From a virus (Duplodnaviria > Heunggongvirae > Uroviricota > Caudoviricetes), in IMG/VR virus record IMGVR_UViG_2737471818_000008: a stretch of 15,982 bases of DNA; one strand, 5' to 3'. Both the position numbers and the translations under genes were made by a program. This document shows positions 1-13,675 of this stretch, piece after piece. Position 1 is the first letter of the stretch. The number at the start of each line of letters is the position of its first letter. The notes below the pieces were generated by a model. It had not been told where the DNA came from. It did not search any database and saw only the letters and a list, made by a program, of their open reading frames with translations.

Positions 1-1254
1 ATGCTGGAACAAATGGGCATTGCCGCGAAGCAAGCCTCGTATAAATTAGCGCAACTCTCCAGCCGCGAAAAAAATCGCGTGCTGGAAAAAATCGCCGATG
101 AACTGGAAGCACAAAGCGAAATCATCCTCAACGCTAACGCCCAGGATGTTGCTGACGCGCGTGCCAATGGCCTTGGCGAAGCGATGCTTGACCGTCTGGC
201 ACTGACGCCCGCACGGCTGAAAGGCATTGCCGATGATGTGCGCCAGGTGTGTAACCTCGCCGATCCGGTGGGGCAGGTAATCGATGGCAGCGTACTGGAC
301 AGCGGCCTGCGTCTTGAGCGTCGTCGCGTACCGCTGGGGGTTATTGGCGTGATTTATGAAGCGCGCCCGAACGTGACGGTTGATGTCGCTTCGCTGTGCC
401 TGAAAACCGGTAATGCGGTGATCCTGCGCGGTGGCAAAGAAACGTGTCGCACTAACGCTGCAACGGTGGCGGTGATTCAGGACGCCCTGAAATCCTGCGG
501 CTTACCGGCGGGTGCCGTGCAGGCGATTGATAATCCTGACCGTGCGCTGGTCAGTGAAATGCTGCGTATGGATAAATACATCGACATGCTGATCCCGCGT
601 GGTGGCGCTGGTTTGCATAAACTGTGCCGTGAACAGTCGACAATCCCGGTGATCACAGGTGGTATAGGCGTATGCCATATTTACGTTGATGAAAGTGTAG
701 AGATCGCTGAAGCATTAAAAGTGATCGTCAACGCGAAAACTCAGCGTCCGAGCACATGTAATACGGTTGAAACGTTGCTGGTGAATAAAAACATCGCCGA
801 TAGCTTCCTGCCCGCATTAAGCAAACAAATGGCGGAAAGCGGCGTGACATTACACGCAGATGCAGCTGCACTGGCGCAGTTGCAGACAGGCCCTGCGAAG
901 GTGGTTGCTGTTAAAGCCGAAGAGTATGACGATGAGTTTCTGTCATTAGATTTGAACGTCAAAATCGTCAGCGATCTTGACGATGCCATCGCCCATATTC
1001 GTGAACACGGCACACAACACTCCGATGCGATCTTGACCCGCGATATGCGCAACGCCCAGCGTTTTGTTAACGAAGTGGATTCGTCCGCTGTTTACGTTAA
1101 CGCCTCTACGCGTTTTACCGACGGCGGCCAGTTTGGTCTGGGTGCGGAAGTGGCGGTAAGCACACAAAAACTCCACGCGCGTGGCCCAATGGGGCTGGAA
1201 GCACTGACCACTTACAAGTGGATCGGCATTGGTGATTACACCATTCGTGCGTAA
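1..1254 (+). CDS. proA: gamma-glutamyl phosphate reductase (glutamate-5-semialdehyde dehydrogenase), proline biosynthesis
   Basis: Full-length 417-aa ORF; I recognise the sequence as enterobacterial ProA over its whole length (aldehyde dehydrogenase fold, same length as E. coli ProA). GC-rich core-genome composition. Identity is from memory, not a search. Confidence 0.95.
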
Positions 1255-1368
1255 ATAAAACCGGGTGATGCAAAAGTAGCCATTTGATTCACAAGGCCAT
1301 TGACGCATCGCCCGGTTAGTTTTAACCTTGTCCACCGTGATTCACGTTCGTGAACATGTCCTTTCAGG

Positions 1369-1444
1369 GCCGATATAGCTCAGTTGGTAGAGCAGCGCAT
1401 TCGTAATGCGAAGGTCGTAGGTTCGACTCCTATTATCGGCACCA
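1369..1444 (+). tRNA. thrW: tRNA-Thr (anticodon CGU), thrW-like; probable integration target of the downstream element
   Basis: 76-nt cloverleaf read directly: acceptor stem GCCGATA/TATCGGC, D-arm GCTC-AGTTGGTA-GAGC, anticodon stem GCGCA/TGCGA with loop TTCGTAA (anticodon CGT), T-arm GTAGG-TTCGACT-CCTAT, 3' ACCA. Lies directly downstream of proA as thrW does in E. coli. Confidence 0.9.
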
Positions 1445-1610: not shown

Positions 1611-2825
1611 GTGAAACTCAATGCCCGTCAAATAGACACTGCCAAGCCAAAAGAGAAGGCTTACAAGCTGGCTGATGGTGGTGGTCTGTATCTCCTGGTA
1701 AAACCTAGTGGAGGAAAATACTGGCGCTTTAAATATCGTGTAGCTGGTAAAGAGAAGCTGTTAGCACTAGGTGTGTATCCTGAAGTTACCTTGGCTGATG
1801 CTCGTGCAAAACGTGAAGAAGCTAAAAGGGGTATCGCTGGGGGTATCGATCCGATGGAAGCGAAACGAGAGGAAAAGATTGCCCGGGAAACGCAGTTAAA
1901 CAATACCTTCAAAGATATTGCCCTTGAGTGGCACAGCAGCAAATTAAAAAAATGGTCTGCTGGTTATGCTTCAGATATCCTCGAAGCCTTCAACAAAGAT
2001 GTGTTCCCTTACATTGGCAAAAAACCAATCGCCGAAATCAAACCACTTGAACTTCTGAATGTGCTGCGACGCATCGAGGGGCGCGGTGCTACAGAAAAAG
2101 CCAAAAAAGTGAGGCAGCGGTGCGGGGAAGTTTTCCGCTATGCAATAGTCACTGGTCGCGCAGAGTATAACCCTGCCCCAGATCTTACTAGCGCGATGCA
2201 AGGCCATGAATCTAATCATTATCCTTTCCTCACAGCCAAAGAATTGCCTGATTTTTTCAAGGCATTGTCCAGTTACTCAGGAAGTGCATTGGTTGTTATG
2301 GCGGCTCGTCTACTGATTATCACTGGTTTGCGAACTGGCGAACTGCGCGGTGCATTATGGGATGAAATCGATCTCAACAAGGCTATCTGGGAGATACCTG
2401 CTTCACGGATGAAAATGCGTCGCCCTCATGTGGTGCCTTTGTCTAAGCAGGCTCTTTCTCTTATTGGGCAGATTAAAGAATTAACTGGTAATTATCCGCT
2501 TATGTTTCCCGGCCGTAATGATCCAAGGAAAACAATGAGCGAGGCTAGCATAAACCAAGTATTTAAACGCATCGGCTATAACGGAAAGGTTACTGGTCAT
2601 GGATTCCGGCACACCATGAGCACGATTTTACATGAGCAGGGCTATAACACCGCGTGGATAGAAACGCAGCTTGCACACGTTGATAAGAACTCAATTCGTG
2701 GCACGTACAATCATGCGCAATATCTGGACGGGCGGCGCGAGATGCTCCAGTGGTACGCCGACTATATGGATTCGCTCGAACATGGCGGTAACGTGGTGCA
2801 TGGCAAGTTCGGAAAATGTGGATGA
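1611..2825 (+). CDS. int: Site-specific tyrosine recombinase, P4-type integrase
   Basis: 404-aa ORF with GTG start and GGAG 10 nt upstream. N-terminal arm-binding region typical of P4-family integrases (AKPKEKAYKLADGGGLYLLVKPSGGKYWRFKYR). Catalytic signatures present: RTGELR, HGFRHT (H-x-x-R) and a C-terminal Tyr (RGTYNHAQY). Adjacent to a tRNA gene. Confidence 0.92.
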   Translation: MKLNARQIDTAKPKEKAYKLADGGGLYLLVKPSGGKYWRFKYRVAGKEKLLALGVYPEVTLADARAKREEAKRGIAGGIDPMEAKREEKIARETQLNNTFKDIALEWHSSKLKKWSAGYASDILEAFNKDVFPYIGKKPIAEIKPLELLNVLRRIEGRGATEKAKKVRQRCGEVFRYAIVTGRAEYNPAPDLTSAMQGHESNHYPFLTAKELPDFFKALSSYSGSALVVMAARLLIITGLRTGELRGALWDEIDLNKAIWEIPASRMKMRRPHVVPLSKQALSLIGQIKELTGNYPLMFPGRNDPRKTMSEASINQVFKRIGYNGKVTGHGFRHTMSTILHEQGYNTAWIETQLAHVDKNSIRGTYNHAQYLDGRREMLQWYADYMDSLEHGGNVVHGKFGKCG

Positions 2826-2953
2826 CTGGTTGCGTATACAGTAGTAGACTTTGAGCGACGAAAGAAAAGGCTGTGTCTAGGGTCGCTCCCGAAAATCCGT
2901 ACACCTCGACGGACTGGTACAGCCACTACAGTAGAGGACGCTGAGGTGTGCGT

Positions 2954-3978: not shown

Positions 3979-4176
3979 ATGTCAAATACGCTTATTCGTT
4001 TAACAGAAGTTCAGCGTAGAACTGGATATAGCAAGGCATGGATTTATCGCCTTATGGGGCAAGGTAAATTTCCTGCATCAGTTAAAATTGGCTCGCGAGC
4101 TATTGCTTTCGTTGAGAGTGAAATTGACGAGTGGATTAATCAGCGTATTGCGGAATCACGCGGAACAGCTACCTGA
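3979..4176 (+). CDS. alpA: AlpA-family phage transcriptional regulator / excisionase-like DNA-binding protein
   Basis: 65-aa ORF with GAGG 7 nt upstream of the ATG. LIRLTEVQRRTGYSKAWIYRLMGQGKFPASVKIGSRAIAFVESEIDEWI is the characteristic AlpA/Vis-type winged-HTH sequence found after int in P4-like and PICI elements. Confidence 0.85.
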   Translation: MSNTLIRLTEVQRRTGYSKAWIYRLMGQGKFPASVKIGSRAIAFVESEIDEWINQRIAESRGTAT

Positions 4177-4253: not shown

Positions 4254-5054
4254 ATGAAATTTCCAAAAACGCCCGTACAGGGGCGGGGCTTCGTTCGGCC
4301 TGAAAACCAGAATCTGCAAAATTTCGGCGAAATTATCCCGATTATTTCCGGCGTTATTGGCGGGAGTGAAACCACTATTGTTAGCGCCAGAGCGTTACAT
4401 AAGGCGTTAGGTGTAGGGCGCGTTTTCCGTTCGTGGATCAAGGGGCGCATTGAAGAATACGGGTTCACGGAAGGCGTGGATTATGAGGTTGTTGAATATT
4501 TGAGCCGACCCGATCCGGTGAGCGCAAAATCTCGCCAGCAAACCGCTCTTGAGTACATCATCACAGTGAACATGGCGAAAGAACTGGCGATGGTAGAACG
4601 CACCGAACAGGGGCGCGCCGTTCGTCAGTACTTCATCAAATGCGAGGAAGAGCTACACAAGGTTGCGCCTGTACGTTCCGCAGCGTTACGCCGGGAACTG
4701 AAAGCCCGTATCACAGTTGCCAGCTACTTTAAGCCAATGTGTGCCGCGCTGGAGGCGTACCGGGCTGAACTGGGTAAAAACACTCTACAGCACCACTACA
4801 CCACGGAAGCCAATATGCTGGCGCGTATCGTGCTGGGTGGCATGACTGCAAAACAGTGGGCGCAGGCGAACGGCATCACAGGCGAACCACGCGACCACAT
4901 GAGCACGTTGCAGCTTGAGCACCTTTCTTACCTTGAGCAGAGCAATATCACGCTGATTGAGTTAGGCCAGGACTACCACCAGCGGAAAGCTGAATTAATT
5001 CGCCTTTCGCAGCGTTGGTTAGCCCGTCGCATGGAGGAAAACAGCCATGTGTAA
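4254..5054 (+). CDS. Phage antirepressor-like protein (AntA/ORF6N-type N-terminal domain)
   Basis: 266-aa ORF with CAGGAG upstream. The N-terminal stretch SARALHKALGVGRVFRSWIKGRIEEYGFTEGVDYEVV matches the pattern I associate with AntA/ORF6N antirepressor N-domains. The domain assignment is from memory and needs an HMM search. Confidence 0.6.
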   Translation: MKFPKTPVQGRGFVRPENQNLQNFGEIIPIISGVIGGSETTIVSARALHKALGVGRVFRSWIKGRIEEYGFTEGVDYEVVEYLSRPDPVSAKSRQQTALEYIITVNMAKELAMVERTEQGRAVRQYFIKCEEELHKVAPVRSAALRRELKARITVASYFKPMCAALEAYRAELGKNTLQHHYTTEANMLARIVLGGMTAKQWAQANGITGEPRDHMSTLQLEHLSYLEQSNITLIELGQDYHQRKAELIRLSQRWLARRMEENSHV

Positions 5055-6348
5055 CGCTCTGACCGTTACAAAAAGAGAAAGCGCCCCGTTGCCGGAGCGC
5101 CTTTGTGAACGAATAGCCTACTGCGCCATATTGCTTACTGTCTACGGGGCAGATTATAGCGTTGTGGTCGCACAGAGTGAAGGCGCTGATCACCGTTTCT
5201 ACAGCACGCCGGAAATGCAGAATATTTTGCTGCAAAATGCCGTTGGTCACGCCGTCCGGAAAGCAAAAAATTTTGCTGGTGGTGCGACCGATACGATTTT
5301 GTCAGGTCGCCAGGTGCTGATTAATCTGATGTCTGATTTCGTTCTGGATAAAACAAAGGCGACCGCAGAGGGCCGCCAGTGGGAAAGCTACATACTTGAA
5401 CGCATCGCCAACAATGCCAGATTTGCGGCTGGTGGACAATGTGTCAGCTTTGCACCAATGACTCTATGTTTAACTGAGGGTCATTATGGTGAATATGCTG
5501 GCTTGCTGGTGGGCTATTCCTGCTCTTTAACATTGCCATGCCGCGATGTTTTCCAGGTATGCGATCCCATTTTTGTGCGCCTGTACTCTTTAAGGAATTG
5601 CTCAAGGGCAAAAGCACATGGCGCGAATCTTTCTGATTCATGCTCTATCTTTCTGCGCCGTCTTTTCCGTGCCGGTGATGGTGTATTGGTTGATTCTTTG
5701 TTGGTCATGGCGCTGCCCTGTAAAACGATGCACCGTAGTTCCTCACACCACGGCGCTGGTGATGGTTACTCCTGTTCTTTGGCCTTGCGGCGCTGGCGGT
5801 ATTCAACTTCTCGCTTTAATGCTGCTGTTACAAACTGCCCTGTACTTTCACCAGGCATTTTTACCGCCTCAACATTGTTCATAACTTCATGCGGAACCCT
5901 TGCCGCAACTGTTTGTGATTTTGCGTTTACTGCTTTTGTCGCCATGTTGTGTACCCCTTACAAAAAACAAATGCAGTATGCAGGAAAAAAAATAAGTGTT
6001 CAACACTTGACGTGTTTAACACCTGGACTTAAATTGGTGTTCAACACCTTGTTGATGCAAGGTGCAGAAACGACAACGCCCCGCAGTGGTGGCACACATG
6101 CAGGACGTCTAACCACCAACGATAGCAAGAGTATCGAGGTAGCTATGAGAAATCATACCACACACCCGCAAGGGCGGGACTCGCACAACCTGAATAAATA
6201 CATCTGGCGTTTTATCGCCCTGAGCACGGCACAACCGCGCGTAATTCACATCGAGGCCACCAGCGAACAGGAAGCACGCCAGCAATCTCCTGATGGCTGC
6301 GTGATGGTATTCGCCGCCCGTATTCGCCAGGAGGTGGAACATGTGTAA
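5047..6348 (+). CDS. Hypothetical protein; only the 5' ~140 codons look coding. The 433-codon ORF is probably a chimeric read-through across an antisense gene, an intergenic operator region and a separate in-frame small gene
   Basis: Start ATG overlaps the stop of the upstream gene (ATGTGTAA). Codon usage over about 5047-5470 looks like normal coding sequence. Beyond that the translation becomes Cys/Ser/Thr-rich and crosses an operator/promoter cluster at 5996-6047. No in-frame stop exists before 6348. Confidence 0.25.
   Translation: MCNALTVTKRESAPLPERLCERIAYCAILLTVYGADYSVVVAQSEGADHRFYSTPEMQNILLQNAVGHAVRKAKNFAGGATDTILSGRQVLINLMSDFVLDKTKATAEGRQWESYILERIANNARFAAGGQCVSFAPMTLCLTEGHYGEYAGLLVGYSCSLTLPCRDVFQVCDPIFVRLYSLRNCSRAKAHGANLSDSCSIFLRRLFRAGDGVLVDSLLVMALPCKTMHRSSSHHGAGDGYSCSLALRRWRYSTSRFNAAVTNCPVLSPGIFTASTLFITSCGTLAATVCDFAFTAFVAMLCTPYKKQMQYAGKKISVQHLTCLTPGLKLVFNTLLMQGAETTTPRSGGTHAGRLTTNDSKSIEVAMRNHTTHPQGRDSHNLNKYIWRFIALSTAQPRVIHIEATSEQEARQQSPDGCVMVFAARIRQEVEHV
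5766..5945 (-). CDS. Small ribbon-helix-helix-like DNA-binding protein (59 aa), candidate repressor of the divergent promoter; not in the supplied ORF track because it is under 60 aa
   Basis: Hand-translated from the minus strand: MATKAVNAKSQTVAARVPHEVMNNVEAVKMPGESTGQFVTAALKREVEYRQRRKAKEQE. AAGGGG lies 8 nt upstream of the ATG. The pattern is strand (TVAARV), helix, loop, helix. Three palindromic operators lie immediately upstream. Confidence 0.4.
   Translation of the reverse strand: MATKAVNAKSQTVAARVPHEVMNNVEAVKMPGESTGQFVTAALKREVEYRQRRKAKEQE
5996..6047. promoter_or_regulatory. Divergent promoter/operator region: three GTGTT(C/T)AACAC palindromes overlapping a sigma70-like promoter
   Basis: Seen directly: GTGTTCAACAC (5996-6006), GTGTTTAACAC (6012-6022), GTGTTCAACAC (6037-6047). 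TTGACG (6007-6012), a 17-bp spacer, then TAAATT (6030-6035) forms a plus-strand promoter with operators flanking the -35 and overlapping the spacer and the region just downstream of the -10. Confidence 0.55.
6145..6348 (+). CDS. Small protein (67 aa), possibly Icd-like host cell-division inhibitor family; first gene of the rightward operon
   Basis: In-frame ATG at 6145 with GAGG 6 nt upstream, downstream of the operator/promoter cluster. MRNHTTHPQGRDSHNLNKYIWRFIALSTAQPRVIHIEATSEQEARQQSPDGCVMVFAARIRQEVEHV resembles my recollection of Icd-like small proteins in P4-like prophages. Unverified. Confidence 0.4.
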   Translation: MRNHTTHPQGRDSHNLNKYIWRFIALSTAQPRVIHIEATSEQEARQQSPDGCVMVFAARIRQEVEHV

Positions 6349-7346: not shown

Positions 7347-7637
7347 ATGAAAAAGAAAAATTCTGGCTTTACTGCCAGCGGCCTCTCTCGGCCTGAAATC
7401 CGCCCCGGTGATATTTTCCGGGACACCAGACGCGGGGGACGGGTGGTTATTCGTCACGTTACGCCAGGCAATATCACCTACCGCCGTGAGGCTTACGAAT
7501 ATGACTGCGTAATGCCGCGCCGTCAGTTTGATCGTGATTTTATTCTGGTGGAAAACAAACAACAGGCAGTGGCGAGACGTGCAGCCACGAATATTAAAAA
7601 AATCCGGGCAATGTTGGTTGCGGGAGGTAAGAAGTGA
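7347..7637 (+). CDS. Hypothetical basic protein (96 aa)
   Basis: ORF immediately after the previous stop; its stop overlaps the primase GTG start (GTGA). Confidence 0.6.
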   Translation: MKKKNSGFTASGLSRPEIRPGDIFRDTRRGGRVVIRHVTPGNITYRREAYEYDCVMPRRQFDRDFILVENKQQAVARRAATNIKKIRAMLVAGGKK

Positions 7638-9439
7638 AAAACGCACCGAGTCTAAAATATCAGCCGAAGGATAAATTCACTGAGGTAATCATTTTTGCCG
7701 GGACGGATGCTTACGCCCATGCTCAACACTGGATTGAAAGTGAAGGACGAAAACACGGCGATAACGTGCCTCCTGTTTACCTGGGGCCAAAGCAACTGGC
7801 AGACCTGGCGAATATCCGCATTATTGACGAGAAACGCCGTTTTGCGCGTGTCTATATCGCGGGGGAGATAGAGCCAATCCAGATCAATACTATCGCTGAA
7901 AAGCTGGCGCTGGCTGGCGTACAGGAGGCGAAATTATACAAAGGTATCACCGACCAGGAACCGGAGAACTGGCGCGACTACCTGCAACGGATCCGCGAAC
8001 AGGCTGAGCACGGGGAAGTTTCAGTGATGAAATTAGCTACAAAAAATAGTGGTCTACCCAAGCCTGCATTAAATCAGATGGGAGCCAGCCAGAGAGGGGA
8101 GGTGTTACTTGAACATTATGGAGGAGCACTGGCGATAAATGATGATTCTGATGTAGTTCACCATTACAACGGAATTGTTTGGGAGCCTGTATCTGATAAA
8201 GAACTCCAGCGGTCTATGGCGAAGATTTTTATTGATGCCGAAATTAGTTATTCGCAAAACGCCATTAAATTTGCCGTAGAGACAATGAAATTGAGTCTAC
8301 CTGTTATGGGGGGAGCGGACAGAAATCTTATTGGGTTCAGTAACGGTGTTTTTGATATCAGGACAGGAAATTTTCGGGAACACAACAAAAATGACTGGTT
8401 GTTAAATGCCAGTGAATTACCGTTCAGCCCGCCAGAAGAGGGGGAAACGCTGGCAACACATGCGCCGAATTTCTGGAAGTGGTTGCGTCGTTCGGTGGCG
8501 GATAATGCTCGTAAAGCGGATCGCGTACTGGCGGCATTATTCATGGTACTGGCGAACCGGTACGACTGGCAGTTATTCCTTGAGGTAACGGGGCCGGGCG
8601 GAAGCGGTAAAAGTGTGATGGCGGAGATTTGTACCATGCTGGCGGGTAAGGCCAATACAGTATCGGCGAGCATGAAGGCGCTGGAAGACGCGAGGGAACG
8701 AGCGTTAGTGGTAGGATATTCTCTGATTATCATGCCTGACATGACCCGCTACGCAGGTGATGGTGCTGGGATTAAGGCCATTACAGGCGGTGACAAGGTG
8801 GCTATCGATCCGAAACACAAAGCGCCCTATTCCACGCGCGTTCCTGCGGTAGTGCTGGCAGTAAACAATAATGCCATGTCATTCAGCGACCGTAGTGGGG
8901 GGATCTCGCGTCGACGAGTGATATTTAATTTCTCTGAGGTTGTACCAGAGAACGAACGCGATCCGATGCTGGCGAAAAAGATAGAAGGGGAACTGGCCGT
9001 AGTGATTCGCCATTTGCTTACACGATTTGCCGACCAGGACGAAGCGAAAAGACTACTTTATGAGCAGCAAAAATCAGAAGAAGCACTGTTAATAAAGCGT
9101 GAAGGTGATTCGCTGGTGGACTTCTGCGGTTATCTGATGTCGTTGGTTAAATGTGAGGGGATGATAGTAGGTAATGCAGAAATAGTGCCATTTAGCCCGA
9201 GGCGATATCTGTATCATGCTTATTTGGCTTATATGTCTGCGCATGGTCTGGGAAAACCGGTATCACTGACACGCTTTGGTACAGATATGCCAGGGGCAAT
9301 GGCTGAGTACGGAAAGGAGTACAAGCGGGCTAAATGCACTAAAGGTCCAGATAAAGGGCGAACGATCACAAATGTTCTGTTAGATAAAGATGCTGATGGA
9401 TGGTTACCAGCAGCGGCAGGCATTAACGACAGAACATGA
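7634..9439 (+). CDS. Phage/plasmid primase, P4 family (primase-helicase with C-terminal NTPase domain)
   Basis: 601-aa ORF with GTG start and GGGAGG upstream. Walker A GPGGSGKS and a downstream Walker-B-like acidic motif; overall architecture typical of P4 alpha-like / PICI pri-rep proteins. An iteron array follows immediately. Confidence 0.88.
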   Translation: MKNAPSLKYQPKDKFTEVIIFAGTDAYAHAQHWIESEGRKHGDNVPPVYLGPKQLADLANIRIIDEKRRFARVYIAGEIEPIQINTIAEKLALAGVQEAKLYKGITDQEPENWRDYLQRIREQAEHGEVSVMKLATKNSGLPKPALNQMGASQRGEVLLEHYGGALAINDDSDVVHHYNGIVWEPVSDKELQRSMAKIFIDAEISYSQNAIKFAVETMKLSLPVMGGADRNLIGFSNGVFDIRTGNFREHNKNDWLLNASELPFSPPEEGETLATHAPNFWKWLRRSVADNARKADRVLAALFMVLANRYDWQLFLEVTGPGGSGKSVMAEICTMLAGKANTVSASMKALEDARERALVVGYSLIIMPDMTRYAGDGAGIKAITGGDKVAIDPKHKAPYSTRVPAVVLAVNNNAMSFSDRSGGISRRRVIFNFSEVVPENERDPMLAKKIEGELAVVIRHLLTRFADQDEAKRLLYEQQKSEEALLIKREGDSLVDFCGYLMSLVKCEGMIVGNAEIVPFSPRRYLYHAYLAYMSAHGLGKPVSLTRFGTDMPGAMAEYGKEYKRAKCTKGPDKGRTITNVLLDKDADGWLPAAAGINDRT

Positions 9440-9473: not shown

Positions 9474-9806
9474 GGTTGGTAGACAGATACACTTAACCCT
9501 CTACCAACCATCTACTAATTAATGTTTTGAATTATATAGGTATTTTTAATGTGGTAGAGAGGTGGACAGTTTATTTTATATTTCTAAACCACGGGGGTAT
9601 CTAAAAATAGATAGTTATGGGTTCATTTTTAAAATTTTTCTTTTAACTATCTACACTGTCTACCATTTAGTAAAAATCATTAATTATCAATGTATTAATA
9701 CGGTAGAGAGTTGGTAGACAGTTTGCAGATTGTTTTTTGTTATGTGTGAACAACATTAAATAAATCAATCAATTATATCGATAGACAGTTGGTAGACAGT
9801 TGTAAC
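9474..9806. repeat. Iteron array, probable replication origin: about 8-9 copies of GGTAGA(C/G)AG(TT) in both orientations in an AT-rich segment
   Basis: Seen directly: GGTTGGTAGACAG (9474-9486) with inverted partner CTACCAACCA (9501-9510); GTGGTAGAGAGGTGGACAGTT (9551-9571); ACTGTCTACCA (9655-9665, inverted); CGGTAGAGAGTTGGTAGACAGTT (9701-9723); tandem TAGACAGTTGGTAGACAGTT (9782-9801). Directly downstream of the primase gene. Confidence 0.65.
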
Positions 9807-9807
9807 G

Positions 9808-10350
9808 ATGGGGCAAAGCATGACTAAGCTGACCATTAACAGAAAACCGAAAGGCATTTACGGCACGCCGCAGAAAACGACGCAGGCGGCACAGGAGCAG
9901 GATAAAACCACGTCGGCGCATAAAGTGATGCCCGGTAACCAGAAAGCGCAGCAGAAGCCCACAGGGGCGACACCGTGGCGGCATATGACCAAGCGCCAGC
10001 GCAAAAACCGCAGGCGCATTAACCGCCTCACTGAGTTGTGGCCTGAATTATTCAGCCGGGAAGCACCGAAGCCGCTTAAGGTGGGGATATTCGACGACCT
10101 GATGCAGGATCTCGCCGTCAGGGGGCTGGCATTCGGTCTAGGGGCATTGCGTGCGACGCTGGCATCTTATGCACAGTGTCCGCGCTATTACCGCGCCTTA
10201 ATGGCTGGTGGGGTACGCTACGACCTGAAAGGCCAGCCGTGCGGCGAGGTGACACCACAGGAACAACAGGACGCAGAAACGCGGCTGGTGGCGCTGAATG
10301 AGAAGCGCAAACGTCAGCGCCGGGTAGCAAAGGAGAAAACAGGCGCATGA
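9808..10350 (+). CDS. ProQ/FinO-domain RNA-binding protein (RNA chaperone family)
   Basis: The segment ELFSREAPKPLKVGIFDDLMQDL...YAQCPRYYRALMAGGVRYDLKGQPCGEVT aligns by eye with the E. coli ProQ N-terminal FinO-like domain (PLKIGIFQDL...RVDLDGNPCGEL). Basic, low-complexity N-terminus. The start may be ATG 9808 or ATG 9820. Confidence 0.8.
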   Translation: MGQSMTKLTINRKPKGIYGTPQKTTQAAQEQDKTTSAHKVMPGNQKAQQKPTGATPWRHMTKRQRKNRRRINRLTELWPELFSREAPKPLKVGIFDDLMQDLAVRGLAFGLGALRATLASYAQCPRYYRALMAGGVRYDLKGQPCGEVTPQEQQDAETRLVALNEKRKRQRRVAKEKTGA

Positions 10351-10634
10351 TTCACGACAGCAAAGCGGAAGCACTGGAAGCGCGTGGTCTGTACCGGAGA
10401 GCGGCGGCGCGGTGGGCTGAGGTCATCATGCTGGCGAATGATGACAAGGCACGGGAACAGGCGGCAAAACGTCGCGCGGAATGTATCCGCAAGGCAGCAC
10501 GCCCACCAGCAAGGCAGGATAATTTCGGGGAGATGCGCGAAACCATCAGCCGGGCACATGCCGGGATGGGATTACATCAGCCCAATGGTAAGGCATTCAG
10601 GAAATACCCTGGATCGAAAAATTGCAGTCAGTGA
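10347..10634 (+). CDS. Small regulatory protein, possibly a PerC-family transcriptional activator
   Basis: 95-aa ORF translationally coupled to the upstream gene (ATGA overlap). The N-terminal AEALEARGLYRRAAARWAEVI resembles the conserved N-terminus I recall for PerC-family proteins. Family assignment is from memory. Confidence 0.6.
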   Translation: MIHDSKAEALEARGLYRRAAARWAEVIMLANDDKAREQAAKRRAECIRKAARPPARQDNFGEMRETISRAHAGMGLHQPNGKAFRKYPGSKNCSQ

Positions 10635-10639
10635 CGGAG

Positions 10640-10663
10640 GCCGGGATTTTTCCCGGCTTTTTT
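10640..10663 (+). terminator. Rho-independent terminator after the ProQ/PerC-like gene pair
   Basis: GCCGGGA-TTTT-TCCCGGC forms a 7-bp GC-rich stem with a 4-nt loop, followed by TTTTTT; begins 6 nt after the stop codon. Confidence 0.75.
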
Positions 10664-10675
10664 GTGCCAGTAAAA

Positions 10676-10710
10676 AGCCCGCAGCCAGAAGTGTTGCGGG
10701 CTTTGTTTTT
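10676..10710. terminator. Second hairpin terminator, possibly bidirectional
   Basis: AGCCCGCA...TGCGGGCT forms an 8-bp stem, flanked by an A-run upstream and TTGTTTTT downstream. Confidence 0.55.
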
Positions 10711-10835
10711 CAGGTGATTGAAGTCAATGGGAAGAACGCGATCATCATGCGTTATTGTTTCATAAATTGCAATGATGTAGATCGTCATTTCAGTTTGTGC
10801 AATCATAACTATTGTTTTGTTCAGGAGATATGACT

Positions 10836-11009
10836 ATGAGAAAAGCCAGCGTGAAACCTGTTTTACTCGCTCGTGATCAGATTGAAGCATTACAGCGCAT
10901 CCAGGACGAGGAACGCCGCAATTCTCCGCTGGGGATTGCTCCGAGCATTCATGAGGTCGCCCGGCGTTTAATGCAGCGGGCGCTTTATCCCGTAGAACGT
11001 CCGGCCTGA
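10836..11009 (+). CDS. Hypothetical small protein (57 aa)
   Basis: ATG at 10836 with AGGAG 8 nt upstream (the ORF track's TTG at 10812 is less likely). Charged, helical composition. Confidence 0.5.
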   Translation: MRKASVKPVLLARDQIEALQRIQDEERRNSPLGIAPSIHEVARRLMQRALYPVERPA

Positions 11010-11048
11010 TGGTCGTGATTTTTTGGTGAAAAAAGAGAGGTGGTAAAA

Positions 11049-11627
11049 ATGCCAGCAAGCAAAGAAGATTTGCGATTAAAACTGATGGAGGTGGTTAACG
11101 CTCTGTCAGAGTCGCAGGGCAGCACTCCGCAGGAGATTATCGAAATTCTGAATGCGATCCCCGCACAGGATTTCATAAAAGAGGATAACGCTAATCAAAA
11201 CATCGTCGCGTCAGTCGAAGATGAATCCTCACTGGCAGAAGCCCAGGCTAAAGCAGATTCCGCATACAGCAATATGGGCCGTCGCGCTCCAGCCCCGTTT
11301 GCTGGTGAAAAGTCGATGGATTACCGCAAGCGTGCATTAATTGGTGCACAGAAGCTGGCTAAAAAATTCAGTGATGTGGATATTCGTTCCGTTTCAGATT
11401 CTGCAACGCTGGCGGTGCTGGAAGATCAGATTTACCAGGCTGCAAAAGACAGTGTTCAGTGGGCTGTGGAAAATACGCCGGGCTATTTGCGTAAAACCGT
11501 AAGAATGGATGAAGCCGGACGGCGGATTACTGAATATCAGGGGGATCCGAATAACTGGCTTAGTGCTTTCAAAATCCCTCCCCGTCGCCTGGTCAAAATT
11601 AACGTTGCAAGCCTCGCGGGGGCATGA
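11049..11627 (+). CDS. Hypothetical acidic protein (192 aa); candidate morphogenesis/packaging-interference protein
   Basis: ATG at 11049 with GAGAGG upstream (the ORF track start 11040 is probably too early). Normal coding composition. No similarity to P4 Psu, Delta or Sid recognised. Confidence 0.65.
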   Translation: MPASKEDLRLKLMEVVNALSESQGSTPQEIIEILNAIPAQDFIKEDNANQNIVASVEDESSLAEAQAKADSAYSNMGRRAPAPFAGEKSMDYRKRALIGAQKLAKKFSDVDIRSVSDSATLAVLEDQIYQAAKDSVQWAVENTPGYLRKTVRMDEAGRRITEYQGDPNNWLSAFKIPPRRLVKINVASLAGA

Positions 11628-11691
11628 AAAACGTGCTGAGTTCAGCCCTGCCGGATTTGGCGGGGCTTATTGCTTATAACCGGATAACATT

Positions 11692-12363
11692 ATGCTTTTA
11701 ACAGAAATTGAGGCGGCGAAGCAGATTCGGGACGGACAGCTACCGTCGCCTTATCAGTTTTCCAACATGTGGCTGGTTAACCTGCGTATCACAGGAACCG
11801 GAATGGCCTACCGCGCAGAAGAAAAAGAATTTGTCTGGCGTTCACCGCAAACTTATCTCAATCCGCAGTTCCTGGAACGTTGCGCCGGAGTACCCGTAAT
11901 TATCGACCATCCCGAAAGCAAAACCCTTGAAGACGTGGGCGAACGGTCGCGCATTATTGGCACCGTCATGTTGCCGTATATTCGCGGTGACGAGGTGTGG
12001 GGCGTATGCCGGATTTACGGGCAGGAAATCATCGATTACATCCAGAAAGCACGGGGGGAGGTATCCACCAGTCCGTCGGTTGTGTTTTGTGGTGCGTCCG
12101 GTGGGGCTGAAGTTCCTGATGTAATGGGCGAGGACAATTTTTTTATTGAGGGTACGCCATTTCTTATCGATCACGTTGCACTCGTACCGTTGGGCGTATG
12201 GGATAAGGATGGGAAACCATCGGGTGTGGAGGTAACAACGCCGACAGCAGAAGAGCAGCTTGCCGGAATGGTCCGGGACGTTATTGATGCGGCCTGCAAG
12301 CCAGCCCTGGAAAAACTGGAAGAAATATCCGGGCGGCTGGCTCAACTGGAAAAAGAAGGGTGA
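11692..12363 (+). CDS. Hypothetical protein (223 aa); weak prohead-protease-like motifs
   Basis: Clean ORF. Contains IIDHPES, FCGASGGAE and LIDHVAL, which could correspond to a His/Ser protease arrangement. Speculative. Confidence 0.65.
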   Translation: MLLTEIEAAKQIRDGQLPSPYQFSNMWLVNLRITGTGMAYRAEEKEFVWRSPQTYLNPQFLERCAGVPVIIDHPESKTLEDVGERSRIIGTVMLPYIRGDEVWGVCRIYGQEIIDYIQKARGEVSTSPSVVFCGASGGAEVPDVMGEDNFFIEGTPFLIDHVALVPLGVWDKDGKPSGVEVTTPTAEEQLAGMVRDVIDAACKPALEKLEEISGRLAQLEKEG

Positions 12364-12369
12364 GTCATA

Positions 12370-12897
12370 ATGCTGATGAGTAAGGCAGAATATGCCAAAC
12401 ACAAAGGCGTAAGCCGCCAGACAGTTTACGACTGGATCGAGAAAGGCGAAGTGGTCATGTCCGGTAAAAAAATCGATGTGGAAGCGACAGAGCAGCGGAA
12501 CAGCCCACCAGCACAGGGAAAAGACACAGTTTCTGAAATGTGGCCAGAGAGAACGCTGGAAATGACGTGGGGCGAGTTCTGGAAAGCAGTTAAGGCCAGA
12601 GACGGTAAAATTCCTGCGCCAGCAACGGACGAGGGCATACAGCAGCGTGTGCTGGATGCAGCCGGGGAATTAGGCTGGGAAGTGCACTTTCTTGATGATG
12701 GTGCTATCTGCCTTGAGGATTGCGACGGGCAGCATTACTTTGAACAATACAATTTGCGAGGTAATGCCAGGCTGGCAATTCGTATGCTGCGTTGCGAACT
12801 CTGCTATGTTGCAGGTGATTATGCCGATGAACTGGAATCATGGAGTGAAGCCGGGCTAAACGCCCTGGCTGAATGGGAAAAATCAGACCATCAATGA
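12370..12897 (+). CDS. HTH DNA-binding protein (175 aa); candidate small-terminase-like / packaging-redirection or regulatory protein
   Basis: The N-terminal SKAEYAKHKGVSRQTVYDWIEKGEV is a recognisable helix-turn-helix. The gene is followed immediately by a structured repeat array. Confidence 0.65.
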   Translation: MLMSKAEYAKHKGVSRQTVYDWIEKGEVVMSGKKIDVEATEQRNSPPAQGKDTVSEMWPERTLEMTWGEFWKAVKARDGKIPAPATDEGIQQRVLDAAGELGWEVHFLDDGAICLEDCDGQHYFEQYNLRGNARLAIRMLRCELCYVAGDYADELESWSEAGLNALAEWEKSDHQ

Positions 12898-12901
12898 CAT
12901 C

Positions 12902-13195
12902 AAAAAGTGTCAAGTTGAGCAGCTTGCCGGGTTGACACTTTACACTCTGAACGCGAAAAAGTGTCAACCTCGCTGTAAGCCCCGCCGTTACTGGCCTTGC
13001 GCCAGATTTACCACGTCAAAAAGCCGAAAAAATCGCGAAAAGTGTCAAGTTGACATGCTTAGAAATGCCAGGGATGGTTAAGTTTTGTTAAGGTTTTTCG
13101 TGAAAAAGTGTCAAGTGTGTCAACCTACGATATTAAGATTTATTAAGGTCTTAAGCCGGAAAGTGTCAACCAGCCCCTAAGATTTCCTAAGGTGT
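12902..13195. repeat. Two-motif repeat array: at least 6 copies of (A)AAGTGTCAA(C/G) interleaved with 3 copies of TAAG(A/T)TTT-NN-TAAGGT; candidate packaging (cos/pac) recognition or operator region
   Basis: Seen directly: GTGTCAAG (12907-12914) with inverted GTTGACAC (12931-12938); GTGTCAAC (12961-12968); palindrome GTGTCAAGTTGACA (13042-13055); tandem GTGTCAAG-TGTGTCAAC (13108-13124); GTGTCAAC (13163-13170). Interleaved TTAAGTTTTGTTAAGGT (13079-13095), TTAAGATTTATTAAGGT (13132-13148), CTAAGATTTCCTAAGGT (13177-13193). Confidence 0.6.
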
Positions 13196-13200
13196 AAATC

Positions 13201-13383
13201 ATGACCATCACCGAAGCCGATATGCTGGAGATGATCCGCAGCATTGCCGGAATCAAACAACCAGCAAGCAAAATTAACAGGTGTTCAGCGCCTGTTTCCG
13301 TTGTGCTGCAACAGGAATGCCACCAGCGGCGGGAAAACGAAAAGGCGTACCAATGGACGAAGCCAAACAAGTTACGGCGTTAA
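13201..13383 (+). CDS. Hypothetical small protein (60 aa)
   Basis: ATG with AAGGTG 7 nt upstream, directly after the repeat array; followed by a hairpin. Confidence 0.4.
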   Translation: MTITEADMLEMIRSIAGIKQPASKINRCSAPVSVVLQQECHQRRENEKAYQWTKPNKLRR

Positions 13384-13392
13384 TTAGGAATA

Positions 13393-13415
13393 CGGGCTGA
13401 GATAGCCCGCATTTT
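13393..13415. terminator. Short hairpin between convergent genes (weak, possibly bidirectional terminator)
   Basis: CGGGCT-GAGAT-AGCCCG forms a 6-bp stem, followed by CATTTTG; sits in the 34-bp gap between the plus ORF ending at 13383 and the minus ORF ending at 13418. Confidence 0.35.
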
Positions 13416-13417
13416 GC

Positions 13418-13675
13418 TCACAGCTTGTTATACATTTTTCCAGCGAAGTCATGAACCGCCTGAGGAATATCCGACGGCGTACCTAGCATTGTTGGCGCAT
13501 CGGAAACAAAGAACATGATCGCTTCTTTGATTTCTTCGAAAGATGGGGTAGGGGTAATGCGCTTGAGATTTGAAACCGCCCGTAGGAACTCCGCCGTATC
13601 CATTGGATGCCTGCTAAACCACGTTGGACGAGAAGCCCAACATTTTACTGCTTCTTTCACCTTAGTGTTCATCAT
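13418..13675 (-). CDS. Hypothetical protein (85 aa), minus strand
   Basis: ORF with AAGGA 5 nt upstream of its ATG on the minus strand; convergent with the 13201-13383 gene. No family recognised. Confidence 0.3.
   Translation of the reverse strand: MMNTKVKEAVKCWASRPTWFSRHPMDTAEFLRAVSNLKRITPTPSFEEIKEAIMFFVSDAPTMLGTPSDIPQAVHDFAGKMYNKL

Follow-up and report, generated by a model that had tools for sequence, protein, structure and literature searches.

A putative helper-exploitation operon with a split phage head gene in an Escherichia coli satellite

What would a phage satellite do with a handful of small late genes of its own? The question is raised by positions 10836-12897 of a 15,982-nt stretch of DNA (IMG/VR record IMGVR_UViG_2737471818_000008; the whole stretch is called the window below), which is a satellite of Escherichia coli, about 15 kb long, of the type known in Gram-negative bacteria as phage-inducible chromosomal islands (PICIs). 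Capsid-size redirection and packaging piracy have been well worked out for P4, for the SaPIs (pathogenicity islands of Staphylococcus aureus) and for the PICI-like elements (PLEs), and among enterobacterial PICIs only Rpp, which goes with cos helpers and full-size capsids, and the capsid-forming PICIs (cf-PICIs) are understood. Captured late genes are already a known feature of Gram-negative PICIs. Here we argue that 10836-12897 is, on balance, the late operon with which this satellite exploits its helpers, and that it is aimed at temperate phages of the Rac-SA53 type. What the parts are and where they come from is well supported, and from this we infer what they do.

The operon holds four genes, for a 57-aa protein, for ScafC (192 aa), for Prot (223 aa) and for HTH175 (175 aa), separated by 39, 64 and 6 nt (Table 1). 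An initial annotation, made from the letters alone, had described them as co-directional and tightly spaced, which holds in their coordinates and gaps as well as in their conservation. The identical four-gene order occurs in 17 IMG/VR satellite contigs of 10-18 kb, among the matches listed, and in one Pantoea genome, and the first three genes keep their order in a Citrobacter genome. All four genes are under purifying selection, with pairwise ratios of nonsynonymous to synonymous substitution (dN/dS) of 0.07 for the 223-aa protein, 0.11-0.15 for the 192-aa protein, 0.08-0.17 for the 57-aa protein and 0.14-0.20 for the 175-aa protein. Conserved order and low dN/dS argue together that these open reading frames (ORFs) are genuine genes and not chance ones. 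The 192-aa ORF had been listed from a GTG at 11040; the start annotated in the identical RefSeq locus is the ATG at 11049, with a ribosome-binding site, GAGAGGTGG, 5' of it at 11035-11043. A terminator-like hairpin 3' of perC delimits the late operon on its upstream side.

The putative protease and scaffold genes

What kinds of protein does the operon encode? For Prot, modelling predicts the fold of the capsid-maturation proteases (assemblin, T4 gp21), laid out as a DUF2213 capsid-maturation protease domain followed by a long C-terminal helix (residues 186-222). The AlphaFold model, made with an alignment of 28 homologues, has a predicted local distance difference test score (pLDDT) of 87; the Pfam family DUF2213 (PF09979) matches residues 39-168 with 28.1 bits against a cut-off of 22, and the PHROG 'head maturation protease' family is matched weakly. 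Invariant or nearly so across 24-28 homologues are H73, E101, W103, S125-T126-S127-P128, E153 and D160-H161, and H73, S125/S127, E153 and D160-H161 are retained in all satellite copies. The catalytic residues of human cytomegalovirus assemblin are His63, Ser132 and His157, and their spacing resembles that of the conserved residues of Prot; conservation and spacing thus make H73, S127 and H161 candidate catalytic residues. The initial annotation had seen in this protein a His/Ser protease of the prohead type, built from the motifs IIDHPES and FCGASGGAE. The protease assignment is supported by the predicted fold and the histidine by the invariance of His73 in IIDHPES; the serine was wrongly assigned, since FCGASGGAE belongs to a loop that varies, and it is STSPS that supplies the conserved serines, S125 and S127.

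The same annotation had listed both mid-sized proteins as unknown. Both are recognisable phage derivatives, the halves of one head-module gene. Prot is 54% identical to residues 1-226 of the 430-aa protein of Rac-SA53, and residues 58-186 of ScafC are 64% identical to residues 295-423 of that same protein, a domain of 129 aa; near its C-terminal end, 29 of 32 residues are identical between satellite and phage in DEAGRRITEYQGDPN.WLSAFKIP.RRL.KIN. The family phrog_6216 (545 positions) is matched by both, by Prot at 115-328 and by ScafC at 410-544 (E 8e-47). ScafC, which also matches phrog_9420 weakly and has no match in Pfam, NCBIfam or PDB sequences, joins a conserved, satellite-specific N-terminal part of about 57 aa to this homologue of the phage C-terminal domain. 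The phage protein consists of the protease domain, a helix, a Glu/Lys/Ala-rich spacer of 60-100 aa, which ScafC does not have, and the C-terminal domain, which would be its capsid-binding or scaffold part. Its gene stands in the head module of Rac-SA53, in the order small terminase subunit (TerS), large terminase subunit (TerL), portal, MuF-like head morphogenesis, 430-aa gene, 205-aa gene and 342-aa major head protein.

The scaffold of P2 forms part of its protease (PMC6893505). The 430-aa protein of the helper resembles P2 gpO, lambda C/Nu3 and Mu I/Z in having an N-terminal prohead protease and a C-terminal scaffold-like part at the same place of the head module; unlike them, it belongs to a different, uncharacterised family (DUF2213/phrog_6216), and, unlike the phage fusions, what the window holds is a split and permuted satellite derivative.

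This arrangement was followed by a tblastn survey over 86 loci, among them 63 of phage type (contigs mostly of 40-60 kb) and 19 of satellites. In all 63 phage-type loci the protease part comes first and the C-domain part follows after about 230 bp, as in the head module. Wherever the boundaries were read, the two parts make up one gene: Rac-SA53, the Pantoea prophage and five further loci each have a single ORF, of 426-446 aa, and in Chronis and vB_YenM_29.18 one annotated gene spans both parts. The 14 GenBank phage records matched by the protease part are the same 14 matched by the C-domain part. In all 19 satellite loci there are two genes, the C-domain gene first and the protease gene second. 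Across genera, the satellite copies of the two proteins are 69-75% and 61-63% identical to each other, and 52-56% and 55-64% identical to those of phages; the copies of the Pantoea satellite are closer to those of satellites in other genera than to the copy in its own resident prophage. Since the satellite copies are closer to each other than to phage, one old capture, inherited and maintained, accounts for them better than decay, and sequence comparison indicates that the satellite lineage captured a helper head gene once and turned it into two genes in reversed order. A pseudogene, decay or a frameshifted relic as the cause of the split was rejected on the dN/dS values and on the permuted order conserved in 19 of 19 loci. 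Our literature search found no paper tying DUF2213 or a split protease-scaffold to satellites.

Might these be captured late genes without any special adaptation, that is, backup or complementing copies of helper head functions, or neutral cargo? A backup role has been proposed for helper-embedded satellites that interrupt late genes; captured prophage late genes are frequent in Gram-negative PICIs and helper-embedded satellites, one PICI capsid gene being dispensable for transfer (bioRxiv 10.1101/2022.07.18.500453); and relatives of the window satellite hold other late genes, baseplate hub-like or tape-measure-like, in the same slot. Here, however, the gene is split and permuted, with its spacer gone and a new N-terminus in place, and this in the same way in 19 of 19 satellites from several genera, the satellite copies form a clade of their own with dN/dS of 0.07-0.15, and the element integrates at a tRNA, not within a helper gene. 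We therefore regard unadapted capture as very unlikely.

The slot in question, between the protease gene and HTH175, varies among satellites. It holds a baseplate-hub-like gene in L024, L030 and L010, and in L025 an insert of about 2.7 kb with 205-aa, 97-aa and 680-aa genes, the C-terminus of the 680-aa product being transglycosylase/tape-measure-like; inserts of much the same size are present in L026, L028 and L031. An extra 339-aa gene of the Pantoea satellite was tried as a capsid homologue and rejected, the gene being baseplate-hub-like. Satellites of this kind may tamper with helper tails too.

Between the two halves, after the stop codon of ScafC, lies a GC-rich hairpin (minimum free energy -22.7 kcal/mol). 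Hairpins of other sequence are predicted at the equivalent place in Pantoea, where UUUUUU follows, in Citrobacter and in another E. coli satellite; against shuffled sequence the E. coli copies are clearly better (z -2.6, the window's own, and -2.0), whereas those of Pantoea (-0.49) and Citrobacter (-0.85) are not. The element is a possible attenuator that would set the ratio of scaffold to protease, with less protease than scaffold.

The first gene of the operon is also conserved, with 35 of 57 positions invariant across the E. coli, Citrobacter and Pantoea satellites and 65% identity to the Pantoea counterpart. Its product has no match in Pfam, PHROG, NCBIfam or PDB, where a profile search was empty as well; judged by eye, it is possibly a ribbon-helix-helix regulator.

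The names that databases attach to these proteins, 'NUDIX hydrolase' and 'TolA', are annotation carry-over, since the NUDIX domain (PF00293) matches neither the 192-aa nor the 223-aa protein; the former name traces to relatives in phages whose protease bears a fused NUDIX domain on its N-terminal side. PDB sequence searches with the 223-aa and 185/192-aa proteins gave nothing meaningful, and no clear homologue among unrelated metabolic or regulatory proteins turned up for the module. In all 14 GenBank phages (KU052037, PP818812, MN013086, OM046621 and others) the head gene is called TolA, NUDIX hydrolase, glycosyl transferase or hypothetical. Some helper-type head genes do carry an N-terminal NUDIX domain, and satellite ScafC is named 'NUDIX hydrolase' without having it.

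Which phages would be exploited? In Pantoea stewartii ATCC 8199 a satellite (L010) and a prophage of the Rac-SA53 type (L012) share one genome, and such prophages are present in at least 5 of 17 satellite-bearing IMG genomes, among the matches listed. The baseplate-hub-like gene of the Pantoea satellite is 77% identical to the start of the hub gene of its resident prophage. The terminase of these helpers is of the Terminase_6N/Terminase_2 type, families that suggest headful packaging. Helper contigs measure 44-55 kb and those of satellites 10-18 kb, so that satellite and helper stand at about 1:3. Some prophages of the Rac-SA53 type carry enterotoxin genes.

HTH175 and the adjoining repeat array

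The fourth protein had been recognised in the initial annotation as a helix-turn-helix (HTH) protein; its DNA-binding domain turns out to be of the TerS/Rpp type, and an array of sites adjoins its gene. In the model of HTH175 (pLDDT 89) the N-terminus forms a winged HTH (Xis/Cox/TerS(Nu1)/Rpp/MerR type); a disordered linker leads from it to a novel C-terminal domain, predicted to be alpha/beta, with strands at 63-66, 104-107, 113-116, 121-124 and 155-158 and fold matches resembling double-stranded RNA-binding domains. Residues 1-41 are almost invariant and the C-terminal domain is variable. The family is widespread in Enterobacterales, unannotated everywhere, and specific to satellites: tblastn against 50,697 phage records returned no homologue, Foldseek against BFVD matched short HTH stretches and nothing more, and a PDB sequence search gave nothing meaningful. 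TerS profiles match residues 1-44 only, so that HTH175 is not a TerS homologue over its full length; it does have, as Rpp has, an N-terminal winged HTH that mimics the DNA-binding domain of TerS.

Directly 3' of the HTH175 stop codon, six copies of a 9-mer are found where 0.14 would be expected, all inside 265 bp, and its 7-mer occurs seven times. The AAAGTGTCAA sites co-occur with the HTH175 gene across genera, standing just 3' of the homologue in Klebsiella, Pantoea and Enterobacter loci too, and the motif is accompanied by a core, GCATGC...TAAGnnnTGnTAAGG, whose architecture is conserved across loci. The motif was not found in the Citrobacter satellite, which is without HTH175, nor in any helper-type locus tested, terS included. 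In that satellite (L009, Citrobacter sp. NCU1, 10675-11875) the genes for the 57-aa protein, ScafC and the protease are kept and two TerS-family genes replace HTH175, with no AGTGTCAA sites across 20.6 kb. Its 275-aa protein is a true TerS homologue, and one of its TerS genes is 47-53% identical, over residues 96-273, to the TerS of the Rac-SA53 phage group, with a C-terminal tail in common. The array is presumed from this distribution to hold the binding sites of HTH175, and its region is a candidate packaging-recognition (pac/cosB-like) region. A lambda-type cosN was not found, with 7 matches at 3 mismatches against 9.4 expected.

It could also be thought that HTH175 is a transcriptional regulator, of the downstream small genes and cargo or of helper late genes, or else a second excisionase or recombination directionality factor that binds the array. 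We hold this to be possible, if somewhat doubtful. A bona fide AlpA is encoded beside int, about 3.5 kb, cargo included, separate the array from the element's right end, the DNA-binding domain and the site motif stay constant while the integrases vary from 28% to 100% identity, and TerS homologues occupy the position of HTH175 in the Citrobacter satellite. The presence of AlpA, the internal place of the array and the replacement by TerS genes favour packaging recognition over an excisionase.

Rpp binds the TerS of the helper and cosB-like sites of the satellite's own. Like Rpp (RppA/B/C) of EcCICFT073, HTH175 is a protein of a Gram-negative PICI encoded at the end of the late region, with its own recognition sites beside the gene (PMC6739421). 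Unlike Rpp, to which it has no detectable sequence similarity, it is 175 aa long (Rpp, 144-153 aa) and its C-terminus is predicted to be alpha/beta, that of Rpp being a three-helix coiled-coil dimeriser; moreover, the likely helper has a Terminase_2-type TerS and not lambda Nu1, and there is no lambda-like cosN.

An HTH175 homologue is also found in Klebsiella, where the satellite (L004, 669-8702) stands inside a prophage late region, with a truncated PF09950 major capsid gene and tail genes of the E217 type right beside it; it has the look of a satellite embedded in a helper. Its sister L003 has Dit-like, baseplate-hub-like and other tail genes. The Klebsiella 185- and 222-aa genes 5' of the HTH175 homologue were considered as the same pair as ScafC and Prot and rejected, as they match neither DUF2213 nor phrog_6216.

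Proposed capsid hijacking and its alternatives

Taken together, the operon looks like a kit for hijacking the capsid assembly and DNA packaging of the helper, possibly with redirection of capsid size, of a kind undescribed for Gram-negative satellites. The initial annotation's suggestion of helper-exploitation genes acting on capsid or packaging is thus supported computationally, by the protease fold, by homology to a phage head gene and by a TerS/Rpp-type HTH with its site array. ScafC would bind the major capsid protein of the helper through the retained C-domain, competing with the tethered protease-scaffold of the helper; having neither spacer nor core, it would redirect procapsid assembly, most plausibly to satellite-sized shells, for 15 kb of DNA where the helpers have 45-52 kb. 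The untethered protease, made scarcer by the intercistronic hairpin, would mature these shells. HTH175 would bind the array just downstream and so direct the helper terminase to satellite DNA, and the 57-aa protein probably regulates the operon.

A scaffold mimic of the CpmB type converts the T=7 capsids of a helper to small T=4 ones. CpmB of the SaPIs carries the same C-terminal capsid-binding motif as the helper scaffold, its competitor, and type 1 SaPIs pair cpmAB with terS (PMC6893505). As in SaPI1 and SaPIbov1 of S. aureus (cpmA, cpmB, terS), the window has an operon after the replication module, a putative packaging-specificity protein adjoining and a genome ratio of about 1:3 (PMC6893505), and ScafC shares the C-terminal domain of the presumed protease-scaffold of the helper, through which it might, in the manner of CpmB, bind capsid protein. 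The differences are also clear: a sequence relationship to CpmA and CpmB is absent; the part common to satellite and helper is a domain of 129 aa and not a short motif alone; the helper scaffold is fused to a protease, of which the satellite keeps a separate and, to judge from its residues, apparently active domain; the putative packaging protein is not a TerS homologue; and the element is a Gram-negative PICI. The operon would thus be a functional analogue of SaPI cpmB plus terS, unrelated in sequence. In SaPIbov5 Ccm and the PmCI172 capsid homologue, the satellite's diverged homologue of a helper head protein alters helper capsid assembly (PMC8569155, PMC6092414). Unlike these, which are homologues of major capsid proteins, the genes of the window satellite derive from scaffold and protease parts, and a capsid-protein homologue is absent. 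As to P4, no Pfam, PHROG or NCBIfam match to sid, psu or delta was obtained for any module protein, in agreement with the initial annotation, which had seen no likeness to Psu, Delta or Sid by eye.

The same homology evidence could also be read as pure interference: ScafC and the free protease could be dominant-negative poisons of helper assembly, by occupying sites on the capsid protein and by premature proteolysis, and reduce the yield of helper without any satellite-sized capsids being built, while normal heads would take up satellite DNA as concatemers. Those E. coli PICIs that have been studied use capsids of phage size and have other means of interference (PMC6739421), and a helper of the Terminase_6N/Terminase_2 type, with headful packaging as its presumable mode, would suit multimers that fill large heads. 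A strong block would nevertheless be self-defeating, since the satellite needs helper capsids; the 1:3 ratio of satellite to helper genome is that of remodelling systems; and the conserved two-gene architecture with its intercistronic hairpin suggests a tuned role in assembly. Pure interference is for these reasons unlikely in our view. A bolder idea, to be taken as speculative and unlikely as it stands, is that proteolysis is itself the weapon, the free active protease miscleaving the protease-scaffold or capsid protein of the helper while ScafC re-templates the shell, and that HTH175 represents a new class of packaging redirection, neither TerS nor Rpp, which would serve many Enterobacterales satellites, irrespective of helper, for phages of this terminase type. 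It would then be the first satellite to reprogram helper capsid size with a maturation protease of its own and a scaffold mimic.

Against capsid hijacking by this operon, several points have to be set. Small capsids, capsid binding and proteolysis, as well as DNA binding and the packaging role, are all deduced from genes; the H73/S127/H161 triad is a candidate drawn from conservation and spacing, and the phage gene whose C-terminal domain we take for a scaffold is itself uncharacterised and misannotated. The co-occurrence with helper-type prophages is a raw count without a proper background rate. HTH175 finds no match to RppC (6hn7_A) in the PDB, either by phmmer (E up to 1) or with a 31-sequence profile (E up to 10), has no sequence similarity to lambda Nu1 (PDB) or to the TerS of Rac-SA53 or of the Pantoea prophage, and its C-terminal domain is neither Rpp-like nor TerS-like. 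Satellites of other helper types that lack the protease/ScafC pair (Klebsiella L003 and L004) have members of the HTH175 family too, so that its role is not bound to the Rac-SA53 helper group. Scanning 10500-13500 for sigma-70 promoters returned 0 sites. Finally, EcCICFT073, the one PICI of E. coli that is well studied, has capsids of phage size (PMC6739421), and capsid remodelling in the window satellite would therefore be new for the group.

Were capsid hijacking right, a third strategy would be added to those of enterobacterial PICIs, in which a helper protease-scaffold gene is domesticated by splitting and reordering and coupled to a widespread, unannotated DNA-binding protein with its site array. 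With a concrete helper group, mutable residues (H73, S127, H161) and a cis site, the hypothesis is directly testable. The assignment also corrects a common misannotation, as 'NUDIX hydrolase' or 'TolA', that affects proteins of E. coli and Salmonella in their hundreds, and gives DUF2213 a putative function.

The satellite around the operon

The rest of the window (Table 1) has what is expected of a PICI: int, alpA, a primase with an adjacent iteron origin, a co-directional layout, a length within 10-20 kb and its own att site, without a full set of virion genes. The order of its zones, Integration-Bro-Replication-Late, is the layout of Gram-negative PICIs (PMC6092414; bioRxiv 10.1101/2022.07.18.500453). 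A cf-PICI, which has its own capsid, portal, connectors and terminase, it is not, as no major capsid, portal or TerL homologue was found in the window.

Table 1. Features of the 15,982-nt window, from left to right
Feature	Position	Strand	Remarks
proA, then tRNA	1-1441		left flank; tRNA at 1369-1441
Tyrosine integrase (int)	1611-2825		with arm-binding domain
int-alpA RNA	2870-2937		Rfam RF02996; between int and next gene
AlpA	3979-4176		
AntA-domain protein			between AlpA and primase
433-aa ORF	5047-6348	+	no family match
Primase	7634-9439		P4/D5 type
Five TGGTAGACAG iterons	9477-9799		0.54 expected; AT-rich stretch just 3' of primase gene
ProQ/FinO-domain protein and PerC-family activator	9808-10634	+	180 aa, E 6e-24, and 95 aa, E 2e-32; 4-nt overlap
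Terminator-like hairpin	10674-10704	+	12-bp stem, 7 GC pairs, then GTTTTT; 3' of perC
57-aa gene	10836-11009	+	first gene of operon
ScafC, 192 aa	11049-11627	+	ATG at 11049
GC-rich hairpin	11644-11667	+	10-bp stem; after ScafC stop codon, before Prot gene
Prot, 223 aa	11692-12363	+	
HTH175, 175 aa	12370-12897	+	last gene of operon
Seven (A)AAGTGTCAA(C/G) sites	12905-13170	six +, one -	directly 3' of HTH175 stop codon
Conserved core GCATGC...TAAGTTTTGTTAAGG	about 13036-13125		within the array
Small ORF	13201-13383	+	between site array and cargo
Small ORF, 85 aa	13418-13675	-	between site array and cargo
Old-type ATPase-TOPRIM nuclease, 582 aa	14234-15982	+	PADLOC Old E 5.3e-63; Pfam AAA_15/AAA_21 and OLD-like TOPRIM

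Positions 10600-13200 are 100% identical to E. coli EC11, and the left flank, with proA and the tRNA, is unlike that of EC11, at whose locus ARAGORN detected no tRNA. The tRNA of the window is the likely integration site. A 23-bp repeat beside int recurs about 680 bp past the window end in EC11; from the place of the tRNA and int and from this terminal repeat, the element is estimated at about 15 kb.

The stretch of iterons is presumed to be the replication origin. The ProQ/FinO and PerC genes stand directly 5' of the late operon and accompany the module in all E. coli satellites surveyed. Gene calls at 5047-6348 are uncertain, since the RefSeq annotation of EC11 has there a partial pseudogene, a minus-strand YlcI/YnfO gene and an Icd-like cell-division inhibitor.

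No PADLOC defence family is matched by the module proteins. The Old-type nuclease, which lies in a low-GC block (0.32) at the right end of the satellite, is probably anti-phage defence cargo. Of the two small ORFs that precede it, the minus-strand one matches phrog_3439 weakly (E 2.5e-4); in the Citrobacter satellite an 89-aa phrog_3439 gene (E 7e-24) lies on the strand of the operon, and the opposite orientation of the two points to a possible inversion.

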